A stretch of 64,000 bases of DNA from Chloroflexota bacterium (lineage in GTDB: Bacteria > Chloroflexota > Dehalococcoidia > Lucifugimonadales > UBA3495), in assembly GCA_028875055.1 (NCBI GenBank), contig JAPPGG010000023.1, positions 1,746-65,745 on the forward strand, written 5' to 3'. The translations under genes and the position numbers were made by a program. The notes under the pieces are model-generated. The model saw only the letters and a list, made by a program, of their open reading frames with translations, was not told the origin of the DNA and did no database searches. Shown here one piece after another: positions 2,500 through 13,460 of this stretch (the first letter of the stretch is position 1; each line of letters begins with the position of its first letter).

Positions 2500-2680
2500 T
2501 GCTCAACTATTATTGCAGGGCTTGAATTTGCGCTCCTCCGCGATCGCCGTTTCCGGATTGCATCATGATTCGGCAGGTTGCCGGGCCGGATGACCAGTGA
2601 GGCAGTTGCGCCGATGCGAGCCTGACAGTACAGGGCCGGTACCAGGTCCAATACCCATAACAAAGGAGACGCACAGAGAC

Positions 2681-4531
2681 ATGGTAAGTACCCAGTACGC
2701 CCGGGTATTCAGGCTTGCCCTCTTTTCCGCAGCGCTGCTTATGATTGTGGCCTTGGCCTGCGGAACATCGGCGCCTGAGGCTCCCCAGGCCCCTGAAAGC
2801 GGATCCACCTCCCAGCAGGCAGCCACCCAGCAGTCTTCTCAGCCATCCACGGGCCAGGAAGCCGCTCCCCAGCAGCAGGCCAGTTCCGGGCAGAGCCAAA
2901 GCGCCGCGCAGGACTCCGCCCCGCCGCCTACCAGGGTCCTCGCCGCCGCCACCGCGACTCCGCTGCCGCCGGCCATCCAGGCCGAGCCCAGCGCCGATGC
3001 CACCGAGGGCCTCGTTGACTTTGATATCAAGGACCCGGTGATAGACCCCGACCGTTCCAGGCAGGCTGAGGGCAAAATGGTCCTTGCCTACCACACGGCC
3101 CTCAGCCCCAAGTGGCTGGACCCCCAGGTGGCACCGGCCTCGCGGACTCCCTACTCCGCCTTCCTGCAGGCCGTGTTCGACCCCCTCATCGGGGCCATGC
3201 CCAACGGCCGGTTCGTGTATCTGCTGGCGGAAGACCTGGAAATGACCGACGACTTCAGGAAGGCTACCTTCCGTCTGCGCGAGGGCATAACCTTCCATAA
3301 CGGCGAACCCGTCACCACTGAAGACGTGAAGTTCTCCTACGAGAACTACTCCGGCGCCAATGCCGACATCTACCAGGAAAAGACCGAGCGCATCGAAATA
3401 GTGGACGAGCGCACCATTACCTTCTACTTCAATGAGGCGTTCATTGATTTCCTGGAGTTGTACGGCTCTGAGGCCTCGGGAGCCGGTTTCATCGTCCCCA
3501 AGGCCTACTACCAGGAGGTGGGACCCGAGAAGTTCATCGAGGCCCCCATCGGTACCGGCGCTTACAAGATTGTGGGGCAGACCACCGGCCAGTCCGTGAT
3601 CATGGAAGCCTACGAGGACTACTGGCGGAAGGTCCCCAACATCGAGACTATCGAGACAAAGGGCGTCCCCGAACTGGCCTCCAGGGTCGCCGCCCTGAAG
3701 ACCGGCGAAGTGGACGTGGCCTACTTCGTCACCGGGGCCCTGCTTCAGGATGCCATCGAAGACCCCAACATCCAGGTGGACCCCAACAACTCCGCTCCCT
3801 TCTGGCTGTTCTTCCCAGGCTACGAGGAGCCGGACAACCCCTTCCACGACAAGCGGGTGCGCGAGGCCGTAAGCCTGGCAATGGACCGCGAGTTCCTGTC
3901 GGCCACCGAGACCCAGAGCCTCGCCATTCCCACGGGGAACTTTATTCCCCCCGGCAAGGGTGACTACTTGGACCGACCGGTTCCCGAATACAATGTGGAA
4001 AAGGCCAAGCAGCTGATGGCCGAAGCAGGATATGCCGAAGGCTTTGAGCTGGACGCCTTCACCCCCTTCCCGCCCGTATTCTCCCTGGCAGAGAGGATAA
4101 TGGACTCCCTCAGGGAGATCGGCATCAAGAGCGAGCTAAACGTGACCCAGCGTCCCGTCTTCCTCAGCATGCTCCGGGAGCACCGGGCCGGATTCCCCGG
4201 CACACAGATCGCCTTCTCCATCTCCACCGGCCCGCCCAATGCCGCCGGTTACTTCCGGGCCTTTGGCCTTTGCGAGCAGGGCTCTTCGGTGATCTGCGAC
4301 GACCACATCGACGCCAGGATGGCCGAGTACGAATCCAGCCTGGACCTGGAAGAACGCTCTGCCATCGTCGAAGAGTTGCAGGCCTACATCCTGGACGAGC
4401 ATATCTTCGTGCCGGTGTACATCAACGCCTTCGCCATGGGCGCCGGCCCCAAGATCAAGGGTGATATTGCAGACTATTCAATGGTTTCCACGTCGCTGTT
4501 CCCGTATGAGGACATCGAGATAAACCCGTAA
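2681..4531 (+). CDS. ABC transporter substrate-binding lipoprotein, family 5 (peptide/nickel)
   Basis: Lipobox (VALAC), Q/S/P-rich linker, SBP_bac_5 motifs (F.LREG.TFHNGEP.T.EDV.FS; PIGTGAY); AAGGAG RBS. Confidence 0.93.
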   Translation: MVSTQYARVFRLALFSAALLMIVALACGTSAPEAPQAPESGSTSQQAATQQSSQPSTGQEAAPQQQASSGQSQSAAQDSAPPPTRVLAAATATPLPPAIQAEPSADATEGLVDFDIKDPVIDPDRSRQAEGKMVLAYHTALSPKWLDPQVAPASRTPYSAFLQAVFDPLIGAMPNGRFVYLLAEDLEMTDDFRKATFRLREGITFHNGEPVTTEDVKFSYENYSGANADIYQEKTERIEIVDERTITFYFNEAFIDFLELYGSEASGAGFIVPKAYYQEVGPEKFIEAPIGTGAYKIVGQTTGQSVIMEAYEDYWRKVPNIETIETKGVPELASRVAALKTGEVDVAYFVTGALLQDAIEDPNIQVDPNNSAPFWLFFPGYEEPDNPFHDKRVREAVSLAMDREFLSATETQSLAIPTGNFIPPGKGDYLDRPVPEYNVEKAKQLMAEAGYAEGFELDAFTPFPPVFSLAERIMDSLREIGIKSELNVTQRPVFLSMLREHRAGFPGTQIAFSISTGPPNAAGYFRAFGLCEQGSSVICDDHIDARMAEYESSLDLEERSAIVEELQAYILDEHIFVPVYINAFAMGAGPKIKGDIADYSMVSTSLFPYEDIEINP

Positions 4532-4545
4532 GGTTCGCCGGGGCT

Positions 4546-4668
4546 GTCGTCAATTTGAAGATAGGTGTCTCCGGGTTCTCTGTTTGGTCGTGTCCCCGAA
4601 GGCGGGAACCCCAACGGCCTGGGTCACAATCCCCGCTGGCGCGGGAACTATGCGGATCATTTGACGGC
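4546..4668. mobile_element. MITE family C (about 123 bp; TIR GTCGTCAA[A/T]TTG) containing REP-like hairpins
   Basis: Imperfect TIRs gtcgtcaatttg / catttgacggc; same length and layout as 38914..39035. Confidence 0.65.
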
Positions 4669-4788
4669 TCCCCTGGAGTGAATGGGGAACCGTGACAGCC
4701 GCTTCCCACGGGCGTCGCCCTCGGGGAAGCGGTATGGTTCTCCGGATCCCAACGGAGCTTTCCCTTCAGGCAGTAGCTCGGAGGTATA

Positions 4789-5724
4789 GTGAAGACCTTT
4801 ATCGCCAAGAGGCTCCTCTCCAGCCTGGTAACCCTGCTGGTGTTGAGCATGATCATATTCGCCCTGGTGCGCGCCTCGGGCAACCCCGCCGAGCTTCTGT
4901 ACGAATACCCCGGGGCTCGGGAAGAGGACATAGCCCGCCAGACGGCGGCCTGGGGCCTGGACAAGTCGTGGCCCGAGCAGTACGTCTCCTTCGTATGGAA
5001 TATTGCCCGCTTCGACTACGGCCAGTCCTTCCAGTACGGCACCTCGGTTCGTTCCCTCTATTTTGACCGGCTGCCCAACTCCCTGCTGCTGGCCTTCTGG
5101 GCCTTCCTGATTTCCATGGTCATAGGTATCCCGTTGGGCATTATGTCCGCCGTCAAGGTGGACTCCTGGTGGGACAGCGTGGGTAAAACCTTCGCTCTGC
5201 TGGGACTGTCGGTGCCTTCCTTCTTTGTTGCCTTATTGCTGGTGCTGTTATTTGGCGTTAAGCTGGAATGGTTGCCCTTCCTGGGCAAGGCTGAAGGCTT
5301 CTTCGACTGGCAGCACCTGATTCTTCCGTCCCTCGCCCTGGGCTGGTTCTTCTCCGGGGCCATGCTCCGGCTCACCCGTTCCAGCATGCTGGAAGTCCTG
5401 GGCAGCGAGTACATCAAGCTTTGCCGGCTAAAGGGCCTTCCCGAGACAGTGGTTATCGTCAAGCACGCCCTTAAGAATTCTTTCATTCCCGTGCTCACCC
5501 TGGCCGCCGTTAACCTGGTCGTAATGATCAACGTGGCGGTGGTCGTGGAGGTCGTATTCTCCTGGCCCGGCATCGGACGTTTGCTCTATGACGGCCTGAT
5601 CAATCGGGACTTCCCCCTGGTGCAGGGCGTGGTGGTTATGGCCGGCGTTATGATTGTGGGCACCAACTTCGTGGTGGATGTTCTTTACGGTTATCTCGAC
5701 CCCCGAATTCGACTGACCAGGTAG
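4789..5724 (+). CDS. ABC transporter permease (DppB/OppB-like)
   Basis: TM helices, EAA-like loop RSSMLEVLGSEYIKLCRLKGL, FSWPGIG motif. Confidence 0.95.
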   Translation: MKTFIAKRLLSSLVTLLVLSMIIFALVRASGNPAELLYEYPGAREEDIARQTAAWGLDKSWPEQYVSFVWNIARFDYGQSFQYGTSVRSLYFDRLPNSLLLAFWAFLISMVIGIPLGIMSAVKVDSWWDSVGKTFALLGLSVPSFFVALLLVLLFGVKLEWLPFLGKAEGFFDWQHLILPSLALGWFFSGAMLRLTRSSMLEVLGSEYIKLCRLKGLPETVVIVKHALKNSFIPVLTLAAVNLVVMINVAVVVEVVFSWPGIGRLLYDGLINRDFPLVQGVVVMAGVMIVGTNFVVDVLYGYLDPRIRLTR

Positions 5725-5732
5725 GTTGCGAT

Positions 5733-6644
5733 ATGGCAAGTGACCAGATATTAGTTACCTCTCCCCCCTCGGGGGCAGAGCACGTTTCGGCGGTGGCCCA
5801 CCGGTCGCTGGCAATATTGAGGGAGGCGCCCAAGCTGCCCGTGGGCATAATCCTGTTTGTGGCGCTGGTGGCAATTTTTGCCCCGCTCCTGGCTCCCCAC
5901 GACGCGGAGACATCCGTGAAGCCTATCAAGATTTTCGCTCCCGCCATTTACGCCGGCGGGACCTGGGATACAGCCCTGGGCACCGATTTCCAGGGCCGCG
6001 ACATACTCAGCCGCCTGATTTATGGGGCCAGGACCTCCCTGATCATCGGGCTTCTGGGAACGGTATTCGCCGGGATTCTCGGGGTAACGCTGGGCATCGT
6101 CTCGGGCTACATGGGTGGCCTATGGGACCAGGTTATCATGCGGATAACCGACGCCAAGCTGGCCTTGCCCTCGCTGGTCTTTGGCATTTTCCTGGCCGCT
6201 GTCCTCAGCCCCGGCCTGTGGACCATCATCCTGATCCTGATGATCGTCTTCTGGACGAGGTACGCCCGGGTAATACGCGGCGAAGTCCTCAGCCTCCGTG
6301 AGCGGGACTTCGTCAAGCTGGCCGAGGTTACCGGCGCCGGCAAAATCCGCGTAATGTTCCGTCACATCCTGCCCAACATTATGAACACCGCCATGGTCCT
6401 GTTCAGCCTCACCGTGGGCGTTGCCATCATCCTGGAAGCTTCTCTCAGCTTCCTGGGCGTGGGTGTCCCGCCCCCTACTCCCACCTGGGGCAACATGCTG
6501 GCGGACGCGCGCCCCACCCTGATTTCCGAACGCTGGACCCTGACCGTCGCCCCCGGTATCTGCATAATGCTGCTGGTGCTGGCCGCCAACCTTCTGGGCG
6601 ACTGGATGCGGGTGCGCCTGGACCCTCAACTGAGGAACCGATGA
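5733..6644 (+). CDS. ABC transporter permease (DppC/OppC-like)
   Basis: LGTDFQGRDILSRLIYGARTSL, HILPN, EASLSFLG.G motifs. Confidence 0.95.
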   Translation: MASDQILVTSPPSGAEHVSAVAHRSLAILREAPKLPVGIILFVALVAIFAPLLAPHDAETSVKPIKIFAPAIYAGGTWDTALGTDFQGRDILSRLIYGARTSLIIGLLGTVFAGILGVTLGIVSGYMGGLWDQVIMRITDAKLALPSLVFGIFLAAVLSPGLWTIILILMIVFWTRYARVIRGEVLSLRERDFVKLAEVTGAGKIRVMFRHILPNIMNTAMVLFSLTVGVAIILEASLSFLGVGVPPPTPTWGNMLADARPTLISERWTLTVAPGICIMLLVLAANLLGDWMRVRLDPQLRNR

Positions 6645-6786
6645 TGGCCGTTTCAGTACCCCTTCCCTCTCGCTGGGGGAAGGTCGGGATCGGCGCAACC
6701 TCCGTGTGGAGGTCGCCGCCCCGGTGTTGAACCGGTCGGTTATGGATGTCTGGAACAGCTTTTAAAAACTCGAGGAAGCGATTGCT

Positions 6787-7774
6787 TTGGTAACTGCAAC
6801 CAAGACTTTGCTGAAGGTCAAGGACCTGTACGCCCAGTTCACCGGCTTTGGGGGCGCCCGGGTGGTTCGGGCCATTGACGGTATCAATTTCTCCCTCGAC
6901 CAGGGGGAGACCATGGGCCTGGTCGGTGAGTCGGGCTGCGGCAAGACCACCACCTGCCACGCCATCTTCCGGCTGCTTCCCCCCGCCGGCAGGATCGTCT
7001 CCGGCTCCATAGAGTTCGATGGCCAGGACCTGATGCAGGTCAGCGACGGCGAAATGCGCAACATCCGGGGCCGTGACATGGGAATGATCCTTCAGGACCC
7101 CATGGCCTCCCTGGACCCCCTCTTCACCATCATGGACCAGGTGGCCGAACCGGCACACCACCACCGGGGCATCCGGGGCGGCACTCTCCGCGAGCGGGTG
7201 GTGGACCTGCTGCGGTCGGTGCGTATCCCCTCTCCGGAAGTGAGAATGAGGGAATTCCCCCACCAGATGAGCGGGGGCATGCGCCAGCGTATCGTCGGCG
7301 CCATCTCCCTTTCCGGCGGCCCCAAGCTGATTGTCGCCGATGAACCCACCACCAACCTGGACGTTACGATTCAATTGCAGTATTTGAACCTGCTGCGGGA
7401 CCTCCAGCAGGAAACGGGCGTTTCCCTGATATTCGTAACCCACAACCTGGGCATCGTTGCCAAGATGTGCGACAAGGTTGCCGTAATGTACGCCGGCAAA
7501 ATTGTCGAGCAGGGGAGCGTGCGGGATATCTACAACAACCCCCGTCACCCCTACACCCAGGCCCTCATCCAGTCCATCCCCCGCCTGGGCAACAAGGACC
7601 CTCTCTACGTGATTCCGGGGCAGCCTCCCAACCTGGCAGAGCTGCCTACCGGCTGCGCCTTCCACCCTCGCTGTCCCTTCGCCACCGAGAAGTGCATCAA
7701 CGAGGAACCACCCTACGTTTCATTTGGCGACGGACAGGAGTCCAAGTGCTGGCTGTCCGTAGAGGATGCAAAGA

Positions 7775-7782
<8 letters not shown>
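6787..7782 (+). CDS. ABC transporter ATP-binding protein (DppD/OppD-like)
   Basis: Walker A GESGCGKT, signature [13 protein letters not shown]-terminal CAFHPRC zinc motif. Confidence 0.95.
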
Positions 7783-8743
<961 letters not shown>

Positions 8744-9327: not shown

Positions 9328-11091
9328 TTGAGCTCTCTATCAGTGAATCAGTCCATCAGGTACGAGGCGGACGAGCCTTGTCCGATCTGGATATCCCTGG
9401 GCATTGGCCTGCAGGGTGTGGTTTTTGCCCTGGCTCCCCTGGTGGTCGTCGTGGCGGTTACCGCTCGGGCGGGCGGCCAAAGCGAAAGTTACCTCTCGTG
9501 GGCCGTATTCGCTGCCCTTGTAATTGCGGGGTCGCTCACCGCCCTGCAGTCCAGCCGGATATGGCGGTTCGGCTCCGGGCACGTGCTCATCATGGGCGCC
9601 ACTCCCAACTTTGTGGCCATATCCGTGCTGGCATTGGTCCAGGGAGGGCCGGCCCTGCTGGCCAGCCTCATTGTCGTCGCCTCCTTTTTCTACCTCTCCC
9701 TTTCCCAGTGGCTGCCCTTGCTGCGCAGGTTTATCACCCCCGTAGTTTCCGGCACGGTCCTGATGTTGATTGCCGCCGCGGTGCTGCCCATTTCCCTGGA
9801 CCGGGTGCATGAAGTCCCCGCCGGCGCACCCGCGGCGGCAGGACCGGTAATTGCCGGCCTGTCCCTGGTCGCGTTTGTAGGGCTGGCTTTGCGCGCATCC
9901 GGTGCGTGGCGCCTCTGGTCGCCCATAATCGCTGTGGGCGTGGGTAGCATCGTCGGTGCCCTGTTCGGCGTGTACGATTTTCAGCGCATCCTTGATGCCC
10001 CCTGGTTCGGCATAACCTTTGGCGGCTTCTCCGGGTTCGACCTTAACCCCGGCGTTGGTTTCTGGTCCCTGCTTCCCCTGTTTGTCATAGTAACCCTGGT
10101 GGGCGGCATCAAGAACATTGGCGACAACGTGGCCGTGCAGCAGGCATCCCGCCGTCAGGCCCGGGCCACCGACTTCCGCCGGGTACAGGGATCCCTCAAC
10201 ACCAACTGGCTGGGAATCCTGGCCTCGGGGGTGGCCGGCACTCCCCCTACTACCGTTTACTCCTCCACCAGCGTATCCCTGATAAACCTGACCGGGGTGG
10301 CCGCGCGCCGCGTGGGTTTTGTCATCGGGGCCTCCCTTGTCGTCCTCGCCCTGTTCCCCAAGCTGCCGGCCCTGCTCCTCACCATCCCTTCCCCGGCTAT
10401 GGGGGCCTATCTGCTGGTCGCCACCGGACTGCTCTTCATGGAAGGGGTGCGCACGGTAATTCAGGCAGGCCTCGACCTTCAGAAGGTAATAGTGGTGGGA
10501 ATCTCCTTCTGCCTGGGCGCGGGGCTGGAACAGCAGACCATTTTCACGGATCTCTTTGGCGGTCCCTGGGGTGGCGTCCTGGACAATGGCATGCTGATGG
10601 GCGCCCTGACGGCCATCCTGCTCACCCAGTTCCTTGACCTCACCAGCCCCCACAGGGGAGGCCGCCTCCGGGTCAGCCTCGACCTGTCCTCCTTGCCCGC
10701 AATTCAACAGTTCGTCGTCCAGCAGGCCTCCAGGCTCGGCTGGAACGAGGCTTCCACCCAGCGCCTGCAGTCCGCCGCCGAGGAGACCCTGATGTCCCTG
10801 GTTCAGGGGAGTGAAGCGCATACTTCCGGGGAAGCGGCTCGCCTTATACTGGTGGCCCGTCCCGGCTTCGGATTGATAGAGCTGGAATTTGTGGCCGCTT
10901 CCGACGAAGAGAATCTCGAAGACCGGCTGGCCTGTTTGAGCGAGGAGACCGAAGCCATGGATGAAGGCGATTTATCGCTGCGCCTGCTGCGCCACTACGC
11001 CACCTCAGTGAATCACCAGAAATACTACGGCCTGGACATCATCACCGTGAGGGTCAGGGGTTCCCGCCCGCCTGGCGGAGTAGCCCCATGA
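9328..11091 (+). CDS. NCS2 (UraA-fold) permease fused to a C-terminal RsbW/SpoIIAB-like (HATPase_c_2-like) domain
   Basis: About 13-14 TM segments with NCS2-like pattern (ITPVVSGTVLMLI; LTGVAARRVG; FPKL.ALL.TIP..MG). Soluble C-terminal ~140 aa (L.LSSLPAIQQFV...GWNE...RLQSAAEE...GDLSLRLLRHYATSVNHQ...DIITVRV) follows the anti-sigma kinase pattern. Confidence 0.8.
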   Translation: MSSLSVNQSIRYEADEPCPIWISLGIGLQGVVFALAPLVVVVAVTARAGGQSESYLSWAVFAALVIAGSLTALQSSRIWRFGSGHVLIMGATPNFVAISVLALVQGGPALLASLIVVASFFYLSLSQWLPLLRRFITPVVSGTVLMLIAAAVLPISLDRVHEVPAGAPAAAGPVIAGLSLVAFVGLALRASGAWRLWSPIIAVGVGSIVGALFGVYDFQRILDAPWFGITFGGFSGFDLNPGVGFWSLLPLFVIVTLVGGIKNIGDNVAVQQASRRQARATDFRRVQGSLNTNWLGILASGVAGTPPTTVYSSTSVSLINLTGVAARRVGFVIGASLVVLALFPKLPALLLTIPSPAMGAYLLVATGLLFMEGVRTVIQAGLDLQKVIVVGISFCLGAGLEQQTIFTDLFGGPWGGVLDNGMLMGALTAILLTQFLDLTSPHRGGRLRVSLDLSSLPAIQQFVVQQASRLGWNEASTQRLQSAAEETLMSLVQGSEAHTSGEAARLILVARPGFGLIELEFVAASDEENLEDRLACLSEETEAMDEGDLSLRLLRHYATSVNHQKYYGLDIITVRVRGSRPPGGVAP

Positions 11092-11453: not shown

Positions 11454-11690
11454 ATGGCGACCACCGAGGAAAGAATCAGGAAACTGGTAGATGATAACCT
11501 GGAAATCGAAGGGCGGACGGCCGGCACTCCGTTGCACCCGGAATACAGCTTGAGGGACTCGGGTGTTTCGTCCGTAGCCTTCGTGGCCTTTGCCAAGCTG
11601 GTGGCCGATGAGTTTGGCGTCACCTTCTCCCCGGAAGACTGCGCCAAGTACAACACTGTTGGCGAGCTGATAACCCGCCTGGAGGGTTAA
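11454..11690 (+). CDS. Acyl carrier protein (free-standing; SupB-like)
   Basis: 78 aa acidic helical protein with L.DSGVSSV motif (Ser at the phosphopantetheine position), EFGV.F, TVGEL; GGAGG RBS. Confidence 0.85.
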   Translation: MATTEERIRKLVDDNLEIEGRTAGTPLHPEYSLRDSGVSSVAFVAFAKLVADEFGVTFSPEDCAKYNTVGELITRLEG

Positions 11691-11744: not shown

Positions 11745-12503
11745 ATGGCGTTGAGAGCCCGGTCAGCGAGTAATACTGGCCCTGGAGCTGACGACGCTCA
11801 CCTTTGGTGGAGTCCTTTTTGCGTGGCCGGCGAGGTTGCCGTCACCCACGTGGACCTGGCTCCCCATCCCGCGCGGGAAGCATCGGCCCTGGCCTGGCTG
11901 GACGAGGTCGAGCTGGCCCGGCGGGAAAGGTACCACTCCGGGCCCCGCCGCTGCTTCGTCCTTTGCCGCGCTGCCCTGCGCTCCCTCCTCTGCGCAGAAC
12001 TGGGGTGCCGAAACCAGCAACTCAGGTTCCAGGAATCCGAATACGGCAAGCCCTTTGCGCTGGTTGACGGCCAACCCGCTTCCATAGGCTTCAACGTAAG
12101 CCACAGCGGCAGCCACGGTCTCATCGCCTGTGCGCCCCGCGGACGTCTGGGTATTGATGTTGAGGAAATAGCGCCGCCCCGCCACCTGGAATCCCTCATT
12201 GAGGCCGTTATGGGCCCCCAGGAGCAGGCCGAGTTGAGCCGCATGTCCGGGGATGCCCAGCTCCGCCAGTTCTTTCGCCTGTGGACCTGCAAGGAGGCGT
12301 TGATCAAGGCCCTGGGGACCGGCTTCTCCACCGACATCTCCAGGTTCCAGGTTCCGGCCGGTCTCCGCCAGGGGGCCAGCTCCGGCGTCTTCCGGTTCGA
12401 GCAAATGCCCGGCGTGGCGTGGCAGTTGGACGATATCGGCAGCGCGGAGTTCGCGGCCGCCCTGGCACGGGAATTGCTTCCTGCGGAATCTGGGTTATCA
12501 TAA
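11745..12503 (+). CDS. 4'-phosphopantetheinyl transferase (Sfp-type)
   Basis: YGKP, FNVSHS, LGIDVE, FFRLWTCKEALIKALGTG. Start codon uncertain. Confidence 0.93.
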   Translation: MALRARSASNTGPGADDAHLWWSPFCVAGEVAVTHVDLAPHPAREASALAWLDEVELARRERYHSGPRRCFVLCRAALRSLLCAELGCRNQQLRFQESEYGKPFALVDGQPASIGFNVSHSGSHGLIACAPRGRLGIDVEEIAPPRHLESLIEAVMGPQEQAELSRMSGDAQLRQFFRLWTCKEALIKALGTGFSTDISRFQVPAGLRQGASSGVFRFEQMPGVAWQLDDIGSAEFAAALARELLPAESGLS

Positions 12504-12548: not shown

Positions 12549-13460
12549 GTGTTTGAACATCCCGACTTCCAGTGGCAATTGCCCGAACCCCTTTCCGTTC
12601 TCGAAGTGGCGGTGGACGCCGAGACTGTCATCCTGGTGCGCCGCCACGGCAACCCGGGTGGCCCCCGGCTGGTGCTGAGCCACGGTAACGGGATGGCCAT
12701 CGACCTCTACTACCCCTTCTGGTCCATACTCTCCGATACCTTTGACCTGGTGATGTACGACCTTCGCAACCACGGGTGGAACAAGGTCAGCTCACTGGAT
12801 GGACACAACATCCCCACCCTGGTCTCCGACCACGACCTGGTCCTGGAGGCCATCGAACAGGAATGGGGACGGAAGCCGCAGGCCGGCGTGTTTCACTCGG
12901 TCTCGGCCCTCATTACCCTGCTCTCTCCCACCCAGGGAGACCGCTACTCGGCCCTGGTCCTTTTCGACCCTCCCATCTGCAAGCCCGGTCGCAGCCACCG
13001 GGAGTTTGAGGCCGCTGCCGTACAGGCCGCCGGCTTCGCCCTTCGGCGCACCGACAAGTTTCGCCATAGGGAAGAGTTTGCCGAAGTCTTGCCCCTCCAT
13101 CCGGCTTTCCGCAGAATGGTGCCCGGCGCCTTCGACCTGATGGCCCTCACCACCCTTCGTCCCAGCGATGGCGAAGAGGGATTCGAGCTTCGCTGCCCCA
13201 GGGACTACGAGGCCCAGATCTTCAGTTATGCCAGCGTTTACGGGGTGGCCGTGGACTTCGAGTCCCTAGTCTGCCCGGTGAAGGTAATCGGCGCCGACCC
13301 GACGCTGCCCTTCTCCTACCTGCCCACCCTGGATTTGAGCGACATTCTCAGCGTGGACTACGACTTCCTCCCCGAGGCCACCCACTTCCTCCAGCTGGAA
13401 AGGCCCCAGGAGTGCGCTGCCGCCCTGAGGGACTACCTGGCAAGCCTCGCAATCTCCTGA
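12549..13460 (+). CDS. Alpha/beta hydrolase (possible thioesterase/acyltransferase)
   Basis: HGNG oxyanion motif, YDLRNHG, non-canonical nucleophile elbow FHSVSA, C-terminal THFLQLE His. Confidence 0.85.
   Translation: MFEHPDFQWQLPEPLSVLEVAVDAETVILVRRHGNPGGPRLVLSHGNGMAIDLYYPFWSILSDTFDLVMYDLRNHGWNKVSSLDGHNIPTLVSDHDLVLEAIEQEWGRKPQAGVFHSVSALITLLSPTQGDRYSALVLFDPPICKPGRSHREFEAAAVQAAGFALRRTDKFRHREEFAEVLPLHPAFRRMVPGAFDLMALTTLRPSDGEEGFELRCPRDYEAQIFSYASVYGVAVDFESLVCPVKVIGADPTLPFSYLPTLDLSDILSVDYDFLPEATHFLQLERPQECAAALRDYLASLAIS

Follow-up and report, generated by a model that had tools for sequence, protein, structure and literature searches.

A SupE-type permease from a Chloroflexota sup locus: a divergent NCS2 carrier with a predicted RsbW-like C-terminal domain

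What kind of carrier is encoded by the gene at positions 9328..11091 (+ strand) of the DNA analyzed here, and what might the additional domain at its C-terminus be for? The DNA is a stretch of 64,000 nucleotides, called the window below, from a Chloroflexota bacterium (NCBI GenBank assembly GCA_028875055.1, contig JAPPGG010000023.1, positions 1,746 to 65,745). The original prediction, made from the letters of the window, was that the gene encodes a carrier of the NCS2 fold fused to a domain resembling the anti-sigma kinases RsbW and SpoIIAB, and its author did not recognize a characterized system in it. The fusion was borne out by the match of the membrane part to Pfam PF00860 and by a Foldseek search with a model of the tail. 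The impression of an unfamiliar system did not hold: the locus is the sup (sponge symbiont ubiquitous polyketide synthase) cluster, known since a publication of 2007, and the transporter is the 'permease' SupE of this cluster, which is named in a table of PMC3908369. That is, our analysis shows that the product is a SupE-type permease, the transporter part of the sponge-symbiont 'sup' polyketide/fatty-acid-synthase-like cluster. This long-known, uncharacterized 'permease' proves to represent an NCS2 subfamily of its own and to carry an unannotated, predicted RsbW-like domain devoid of the ATP boxes. No description of an NCS2 carrier fused to an anti-sigma-kinase-like tail was found in the papers searched.

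The permease and its substrate-site motifs

The open reading frame (ORF) of 587 aa begins with TTG, and a GGAGG sits 3 nt ahead of this start codon. A GTG at 9343 is an alternative start, and homologs frequently begin at the equivalent position. The full-length orthologs are 62-95% identical to the product, and their automatic labels are 'xanthine permease' or 'hypothetical protein'. Our assignment of 9328..11091 (+) as a SupE-type permease gene, with a divergent NCS2 membrane domain and an RsbW-like C-terminal domain, is based on this ORF, on the PF00860 match, on the orthologs and on the naming of SupE in the table of PMC3908369. In that table, ORF17 of the swf fosmid from Plakortis simplex, a 557-aa permease beside a sponge polyketide synthase (PKS), has 'Permease, SupE (ABE03914)' as its best match, with 44% identity to SupE. 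SupE is cited there as GenBank ABE03914 from clone pAPKS18, and sup is described as the PKS dominating sponge metagenomes.

The NCS2/SLC23-type membrane (transport) domain occupies about residues 25-438 (9400..10641, +), as delimited by Pfam (26-402), by NCBIfam (24-436) and by alignment to the structures of UapA and SVCT1. Pfam PF00860 (Xan_ur_permease) matched residues 26-402 with an E value of 1.4e-35 and 123.2 bits versus a cut-off of 27, and the match spans profile positions 6-385 of 389. The NCBIfam models pbuX and ncs2 (TIGR00801) were aligned with the product end to end, and their scores were 175.1 bits (cut-off 414.15) and 142.5 bits (cut-off 291.8), both of which are below the cut-offs. 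Because these two models align over their entire length at under half of the cut-off values, the product is a divergent member of NCS2.

The positions of the substrate-site motifs were read from a phmmer alignment to UapA (PDB 5i6c, 31ey). In this alignment, the 'CECIGD' in transmembrane helix 8 (TM8) of UapA (E356..D360) is paired with I-K262-N-I-G-D266. That is, the motif K262-N-I-G-D266 (10111..10125, +), in which K262 and D266 are invariant in two alignments, replaces the E-x-x-G-D of the nucleobase carriers. Similarly, the NAT signature of UapA, 'QNNGVIALTR', is paired with S313-T-S-(V)-S-L-I-N-L-T322-G323, and from this alignment and the family motif table the TM10 stretch S313-TSVSLINLT-G323 (10264..10296, +) replaces the NAT signature [Q/E/P]-N-x-G-x4-T-[R/K/G].

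The residues K262, G265, D266 and T322 were invariant in 27 orthologs (63-88% identity). The TM8 position is Lys across the sup-linked clade and Arg in one locus that is not sup-linked (L089), and in the other branches of the family it is E, Q, R, H, D or G, as listed in a motif table of 115 members. The same table shows that the NAT signature has been lost in every aligned member. An AlphaFold2 model of the full-length protein, built with 27 close orthologs, had a mean predicted local distance difference test (pLDDT) value of 49; its helix pattern is compatible with a 7+7 inverted repeat of 14 transmembrane helices, and the model is too poor for use. As judged from the sequence, these results show that the protein is an NCS2 carrier, presumably of the 7+7 type, with Lys in place of the TM8 Glu and with Ser/Thr in place of the Gln/Asn of the NAT signature. 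The NCS2 architecture with altered motifs (STSVSLINLT and KNIGD) that had been predicted was thus upheld by Pfam, by the alignment to UapA and by the invariance among orthologs.

The C-terminal tail and its family

The predicted cytoplasmic domain of the RsbW/SpoIIAB type (GHKL fold) comprises residues 439-587, with a core at about 446-577 (10642..11091, +), according to the AlphaFold2 model and Foldseek. The sequence signals for this domain are below the thresholds. Pfam HATPase_c_2 (PF13581) matched the tail with an E value of 0.016 and 15.6 bits versus a threshold of 27.4 (profile positions 2-113 of 127), and NCBIfam RsbA_anti_sig matched it with an E value of 0.004. Searches of the PDB sequences with the tail, either as a single sequence or as a profile of 58 sequences, returned nothing relevant, and a PF13581 scan of the whole genome at E<=0.01 returned no SupE paralog.

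We therefore consider the fold from a structure prediction. Residues 439-587 alone were modeled by AlphaFold2 with an alignment of 58 distinct homologous tails from related loci. The resulting model (mdbf8907874bc) had a pLDDT of 72.9 and a predicted template-modeling score (pTM) of 0.69, and the predicted order of its elements is beta-alpha-alpha-beta-beta-helix-lid-helix-beta-beta, with little confidence in the lid region (domain residues 102-110). The original prediction had expected GHKL/RsbW matches in a fold search of the C-terminal domain. When the model was compared with the PDB by Foldseek, the 21 best matches were indeed all anti-sigma GHKL kinases, with E values of 3.4e-7 to 4.3e-4 and a probability of 1.00. 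They include UsfX (8ih8/8jzt), RsbW (6m36/6m37), SpoIIAB (1l0o/1tid/1th8) and the RsbW domain of Rv1364c (3ke6). The template-modeling score normalized to the target was 0.64-0.85 for single-domain chains of anti-sigma factors, being the highest for RsbW 6m36/6m37, and 0.28-0.30 for the two-domain Rv1364c of 350 aa. The ATP-binding domains of CheA and the histidine kinases ranked later, at about 1e-3, at least three orders of magnitude behind the best matches. Taken together, it is well supported, though not proven, that the tail has the fold of the RsbW/SpoIIAB/UsfX anti-sigma kinases as predicted by the model.

The ATP-binding motifs of such kinases were sought in the family alignments. The equivalent of the N box is A483-AEETLMS-L491 (10774..10800, +), in which E485 and E486 are invariant and S490 lies at the position of the Mg-binding Asn. 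The G1 region reads VAASDEENLED and lacks DxGxG, the register here being taken from a weak hhalign alignment to the RsbW of the same genome. In the G2 region, EGDLSLRLLRH, the Gly-rich loop is missing; this G2-box equivalent is part of the family signature EGDLSLRLLRHYATSVNHQKY at residues 546-565 (10963..11022, +). The three boxes N, G1 and G2 are absent likewise across the 115 aligned family members. The tail is thus apparently ATP-dead, lacking in its sequence the Asn, the DxGxG and the Gly loop, and the predicted erosion of the boxes (AEETLMS and GDLSL) agrees with the alignments.

In place of the ATP boxes, the tail carries motifs of its own. The motifs xxEExL, ENLEDRL and SLRLLRHxASSVxHQ[KQ]Y are conserved in the 115-member table; SLRLLRHxASSVxHQKY is almost invariant, and the residues S550, R552, L554, H556 and H563 are invariant or nearly so throughout the family. 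The conservation of the tail thus far exceeds that of the substrate-site motifs, which fits a common structural or regulatory role of the tail in carriers of varied substrates.

Searched by itself, the tail matched 498 clusters of proteins (at 50% identity) with E<=1e-3, of which 275 had E<=1e-10, and nearly all of these matches are the C-terminus of NCS2 proteins of 570-600 aa or fragments thereof. The tail is therefore no chance feature. Among these matches there was no convincing case of another architecture.

The sup genes and the genomic context

A scan of one genome per species gave 546 confirmed relatives of the permease, and the best 80 loci were examined with flanks of 8 kb. The genes for acyl carrier protein (ACP), 4'-phosphopantetheinyl transferase (PPTase) and hydrolase were sought by tblastn with the proteins of the window, the neighbors were clustered, and the PKS domains were read by Pfam. 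At least one sup gene was found within 8 kb in 65 of the 80 loci (PKS in 45, ACP in 36, PPTase in 35 and hydrolase in 40). The ACP, PPTase and hydrolase genes behave as one travelling unit, of which the order is constant wherever all three occur, and this unit lies downstream of the transporter and co-directional with it, upstream and co-directional, or convergent to it. The giant genes beside the transporter have the domain order KS-AT-DH-MT-ER-KR-ACP, followed by KS-AT in fragments. In 21 of the 80 loci, a PKS occurs with no ACP, PPTase or hydrolase gene within 8 kb. By this count, the linkage of the transporter with genes for ACP, PPTase and PKS is strongly conserved, in three arrangements and in genomes labeled with several phyla, in support of the original prediction.

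Among the orthologs examined first, two keep the ACP-PPTase-hydrolase unit and two (L001, L002) are without ACP. The idea that the link to ACP is mere local synteny was ruled out by the 80-locus survey.

The relatives occur in metagenome-assembled genomes (MAGs) labeled with at least six phyla, and are 55-65% identical to the window protein. The loci bear the labels SAR202, other Dehalococcoidia, Ca. Poriferisocius and other Acidimicrobiia, Latescibacterota, Gemmatimonadota, Opitutales, Acidobacteriota and one alphaproteobacterium. Many of the records bear names, such as SAR202 bin22, Ca. Poriferisocius and the SB06xx, IRC1, COS and RHO1 bins, which we take to be those of sponge MAG studies. 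This spread of the family over phyla clearly exemplifies a symbiosis gene set that is shared. In a FastTree phylogeny, the sup-linked proteins form one clade with a support of 95, which spans Chloroflexota, Actinomycetota, Latescibacterota, Acidobacteriota and Verrucomicrobiota, the phyla being intermixed at short distances. Such mixing fits a horizontal spread of the sup cluster, and errors in the binning of MAGs can mimic it.

The sup cluster is reportedly described originally by Fieseler et al. in 2007, and we know of no experimental demonstration of its product or of the roles of its accessory genes. The letters SupB, SupC and SupD presumably denote the ACP, the PPTase and the hydrolase, in agreement with the gene order in the loci.

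Several features of individual relatives were also observed. In Acidimicrobiia (L044, L047, L048, L051, L053-L058 and L068), the SupE gene is tandemly duplicated; the copies are 5-20 bp apart, each is about 59-64% identical to the window protein, and at most about 20 bp separate the pair from the PKS gene directly downstream. The members in L081, L086, L091 and L092, which are MAGs labeled Gemmatimonadota and Latescibacterota, are near-identical (tree branch lengths 0.006-0.017), a likeness due either to a very recent exchange between phyla or to wrongly binned contigs. In Tepidiformaceae-type genomes (L027, L029, L030, L033, L037 and L038), a gene for an alpha-2-macroglobulin of roughly 2000 aa (Big_5, MG2, A2M) adjoins the SupE/sup module.

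In the window itself, the permease gene is followed by three genes on the + strand. A free-standing, SupB-like ACP of 78 aa with a DSG serine motif is encoded at 11454..11690 (Pfam PP-binding, 1.3e-8; the homologs are also 78 aa), a SupC-like PPTase of the Sfp/HetI type at 11745..12503 (Pfam ACPS and AASDHPPT_N; NCBIfam HetI 1e-28, under its cut-off) and a SupD-like alpha/beta-fold hydrolase at 12549..13460 (Pfam Abhydrolase_6, 6.6e-11). The spacer of 362 nt between the permease and ACP genes gave no Rfam match, and promoter and terminator motifs were no commoner in it than in shuffled sequence. Upstream of the permease in this SAR202-like genome, the ORFs at 2597..8743 (+) encode an ABC importer of the Opp/Dpp type (binding protein, two permeases and two ATPases), which is a recurrent neighbor and for which we claim no membership in the system. 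The SBP_bac_5 gene and two BPD_transp_1 genes immediately precede SupE also in L009/L013/L018 (Chloroflexota) and L047-L058 (Acidimicrobiia, Ca. Poriferisocius), where the loose clustering threshold (30% identity) denotes a recurrence of the gene type and not orthology.

In the genome of the window (3.75 Mb on 75 contigs), there are five or six full-length members of the family. The N-terminal part (about 190 codons) of a second one lies at 1-572 of the window on the - strand and continues at C73:599-2317. This paralog, about 9 kb upstream of the 9328-11091 gene, is 49% identical, has the tail, and falls in a branch whose studied members show no sup genes nearby. A third member at C68:6195-7934 (+) keeps the TM8 Glu (VGAIETIGD) and lies 3 kb from the N-terminus of the sup-type PKS; another alpha/beta hydrolase-like gene and then one further ORF are found downstream of it. 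The sup-type PKS of the genome is split over contig ends (C75:1350-6803, +, and C68:526-3081, -). The one canonical partner-switching set of the genome is located at C36:29615-31612 (L093, L099) and consists of a response-regulator-PP2C phosphatase, an RsbW-like kinase of 146 aa in which the GGLG box is intact, and a STAS gene. In the search output, the frame of this STAS gene contains one TAA stop.

Proposed role and comparison with known systems

With moderate confidence, we propose that SupE is a non-nucleobase carrier of the Sup pathway and that its dead RsbW-like tail is a dimerizing, regulatory or docking module comparable to the STAS domain of the SulP/SLC26 carriers. SupE would transport a non-nucleobase solute as a secondary carrier of the elevator type, and would probably be a homodimer. 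Since Lys replaces the substrate-binding Glu and the Gln/Asn pair is lost, a nucleobase substrate is argued against and an anionic solute would fit, and the sup genomic context suggests an acyl or carboxylate compound of the Sup pathway. The substrate would most likely be a carboxylate of this pathway, either an acid precursor or the acyl product that the hydrolase sets free. Being kinase-dead, the tail would phosphorylate nothing, and would function in the cytoplasm as a module for dimerization, regulation or docking that is common to the whole family and takes the role of STAS. RsbW and SpoIIAB are homodimers, and UraA and UapA work as homodimers. The STAS domains of SLC26 come after TM14 and mediate dimer contacts and regulation; in SupE, the last transmembrane helix would lead straight into the tail, as it does into STAS in SLC26.

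Several points weigh against this proposal. The GHKL assignment depends on one predicted structure of medium confidence and on sub-threshold sequence signals, and the hhalign comparison of the tail profile with the sole genuine RsbW of the same genome gave a probability of 2%. The placement of the tail relative to the membrane domain and the dimerization are proposals, because the full-length model is poor (pLDDT 49). Which solute is carried, and in which direction, is guesswork. There is no PKS in the 64-kb window, so that the Sup-pathway role of the window copy rests on the synteny in relatives. Moreover, the residues E485, E486, N529, D532, R552, H556 and H563 round the former ATP pocket are near-invariant, which could mean that ligand binding persists; in that case, a dead scaffold would undersell the tail.

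This last point can be extended to a different explanation, in which the rebuilt ATP pocket (E485/E486, N529, D532, R552, H556 and H563) binds a small molecule or metal and gates the carrier allosterically; a nucleotide, CoA or a phosphopantetheine derivative could be such a ligand. In its favor, members of only 30-47% overall identity share extremely conserved polar, charged and His residues exactly in the regions of the N, G1 and G2 boxes. However, the pocket shared by these residues is putative, the lid region (domain residues 102-110) is modeled with low confidence, and no tool points to any ligand. We regard this explanation as decidedly unlikely. A partner protein for the tail is also conceivable, and the original prediction had named the adjacent ACP. 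The STAS domain of E. coli YchM/DauA binds ACP, and this precedent in a carrier of the same fold favors the idea that the pseudokinase tail binds the free-standing SupB ACP or the ACP domain of SupA and thereby couples acyl-carrier chemistry to the carrier, as does the genetic linkage of the transporter to ACP, PPTase and ACP-containing PKS in 65 of the 80 relatives. The tail and its signature motif are, however, equally conserved where no ACP or PKS is nearby (L001, L002, L104, L105 and the C8 paralog of the same genome), and the neighbors of such non-ACP members are Rieske dioxygenases with an amidase, a TRAP transporter, ABC exporters and PfkB. Given this equal conservation, and the 21 loci that have a PKS alone, a partner specific to SupB is unlikely, and a universal ACP may be the partner of the tail. 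As a whole, the docking of ACP seems to us quite improbable.

It may also be asked whether the tail has retained the partners of its structural relatives. In such a transceptor, the tail would keep a STAS antagonist or a sigma factor bound at the membrane until the transport state calls for its release, and the carrier would serve as a sensor that controls transcription; alternatively, a STAS protein in trans would control the carrier. The top structural matches are UsfX, RsbW and SpoIIAB, several of which were solved with STAS antagonists or sigma F. A STAS gene does occur near SupE in places: in the table of PMC3908369, the SupE-like ORF17 of the swf fosmid directly precedes an anti-anti-sigma (STAS) ORF18, and in a Latescibacterota MAG, SupE is preceded at a distance of about 650 bp by a lone STAS gene (L064:6953-7273, +), which has neither a kinase nor a phosphatase gene in its vicinity. 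The genome of the window has one orphan STAS gene, at C31:4779-5120. Against this, L064 is the only one of the 80 loci with a STAS gene within 8 kb, while about 1 is expected by chance by a rough estimate, and none of the three STAS genes of the genome is near any of its five or six family members. A STAS partner in cis thus occurs at the chance level among the 80 loci, sigma factor genes not having been searched for systematically, and none of the other recurrent small neighbors was STAS-like on inspection by eye only. We consider this explanation unlikely. The same holds for its broader form, in which the whole SupE family, with about 500 clusters (50% identity), would make up an undescribed class of transceptors: depending on the state of transport, the dead RsbW-like domain would capture or release a carrier protein, a sigma factor or a STAS-type protein.

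We return to the reading of SupE as a non-nucleobase carrier of the Sup pathway with a STAS-like use of its tail, and compare it with the known systems. The locus resembles the sup cluster in that the relatives combine a KS-AT-DH-MT-ER-KR-ACP PKS of one module with a free ACP, a PPTase of the Sfp type and an alpha/beta hydrolase, and come from bacteria of multiple phyla in sponge-associated metagenomes; it differs in that the window copy has no adjacent PKS. The published annotation of SupE is just 'permease' and, as far as the source was searched, mentions neither the tail nor the lost nucleobase motifs; the likeness of the product to ABE03914 is indirect, by way of the 557-aa permease of PMC3908369. 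The present results correct the automatic annotation: by its motifs, the SupE 'permease' is not a nucleobase carrier, its gene is the one most tightly linked to the PKS, and it bears an unannotated domain with the predicted fold of anti-sigma kinases. These features may appeal to specialists in transporters and in sponge symbiosis, the mechanism being a proposal.

With the NAT/NCS2 carriers (UraA, XanQ/PbuX, UapA and SVCT1), SupE shares a PF00860 match above the cut-off, the end-to-end alignment of pbuX and ncs2, and homology to the structures of UapA and SVCT1. In contrast to them, it has Lys for Glu at TM8, Thr/Ser/Ser for the Gln/Asn/Gly of the NAT signature and NCBIfam scores under half of the cut-offs, and it carries an extra predicted cytoplasmic domain of 150 aa. 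With the RsbW/SpoIIAB/UsfX kinases (PF13581), which provided all 21 top Foldseek matches, the tail shares its domain size and its predicted fold (beta-alpha-alpha-beta-beta-lid-alpha-beta-beta). It differs from them in being fused to a membrane carrier, in lacking the N-box Asn, the DxGxG and the Gly loop, and in scoring under the Pfam threshold.

The SulP/SLC26-STAS carriers (YchM/DauA, SLC26Dg and prestin) have the plan that SupE would share, namely a 7+7 inverted-repeat carrier followed by a small cytoplasmic partner-switching domain. In SupE, however, the carrier is of the NCS2 branch and the fused domain is the opposite partner, which is RsbW-like and not SpoIIAA-like, so that the likeness is an analogy of design and not membership. 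STAS and RsbW-like partners are each fused to one of two carrier families of the same fold, and this suggests a general way of regulating, or of signaling from, elevator-type carriers. A SupE transceptor would mirror the design of SulP/SLC26-STAS, and membrane transport would then be coupled directly to partner-switching signaling in both of these sister carrier families.

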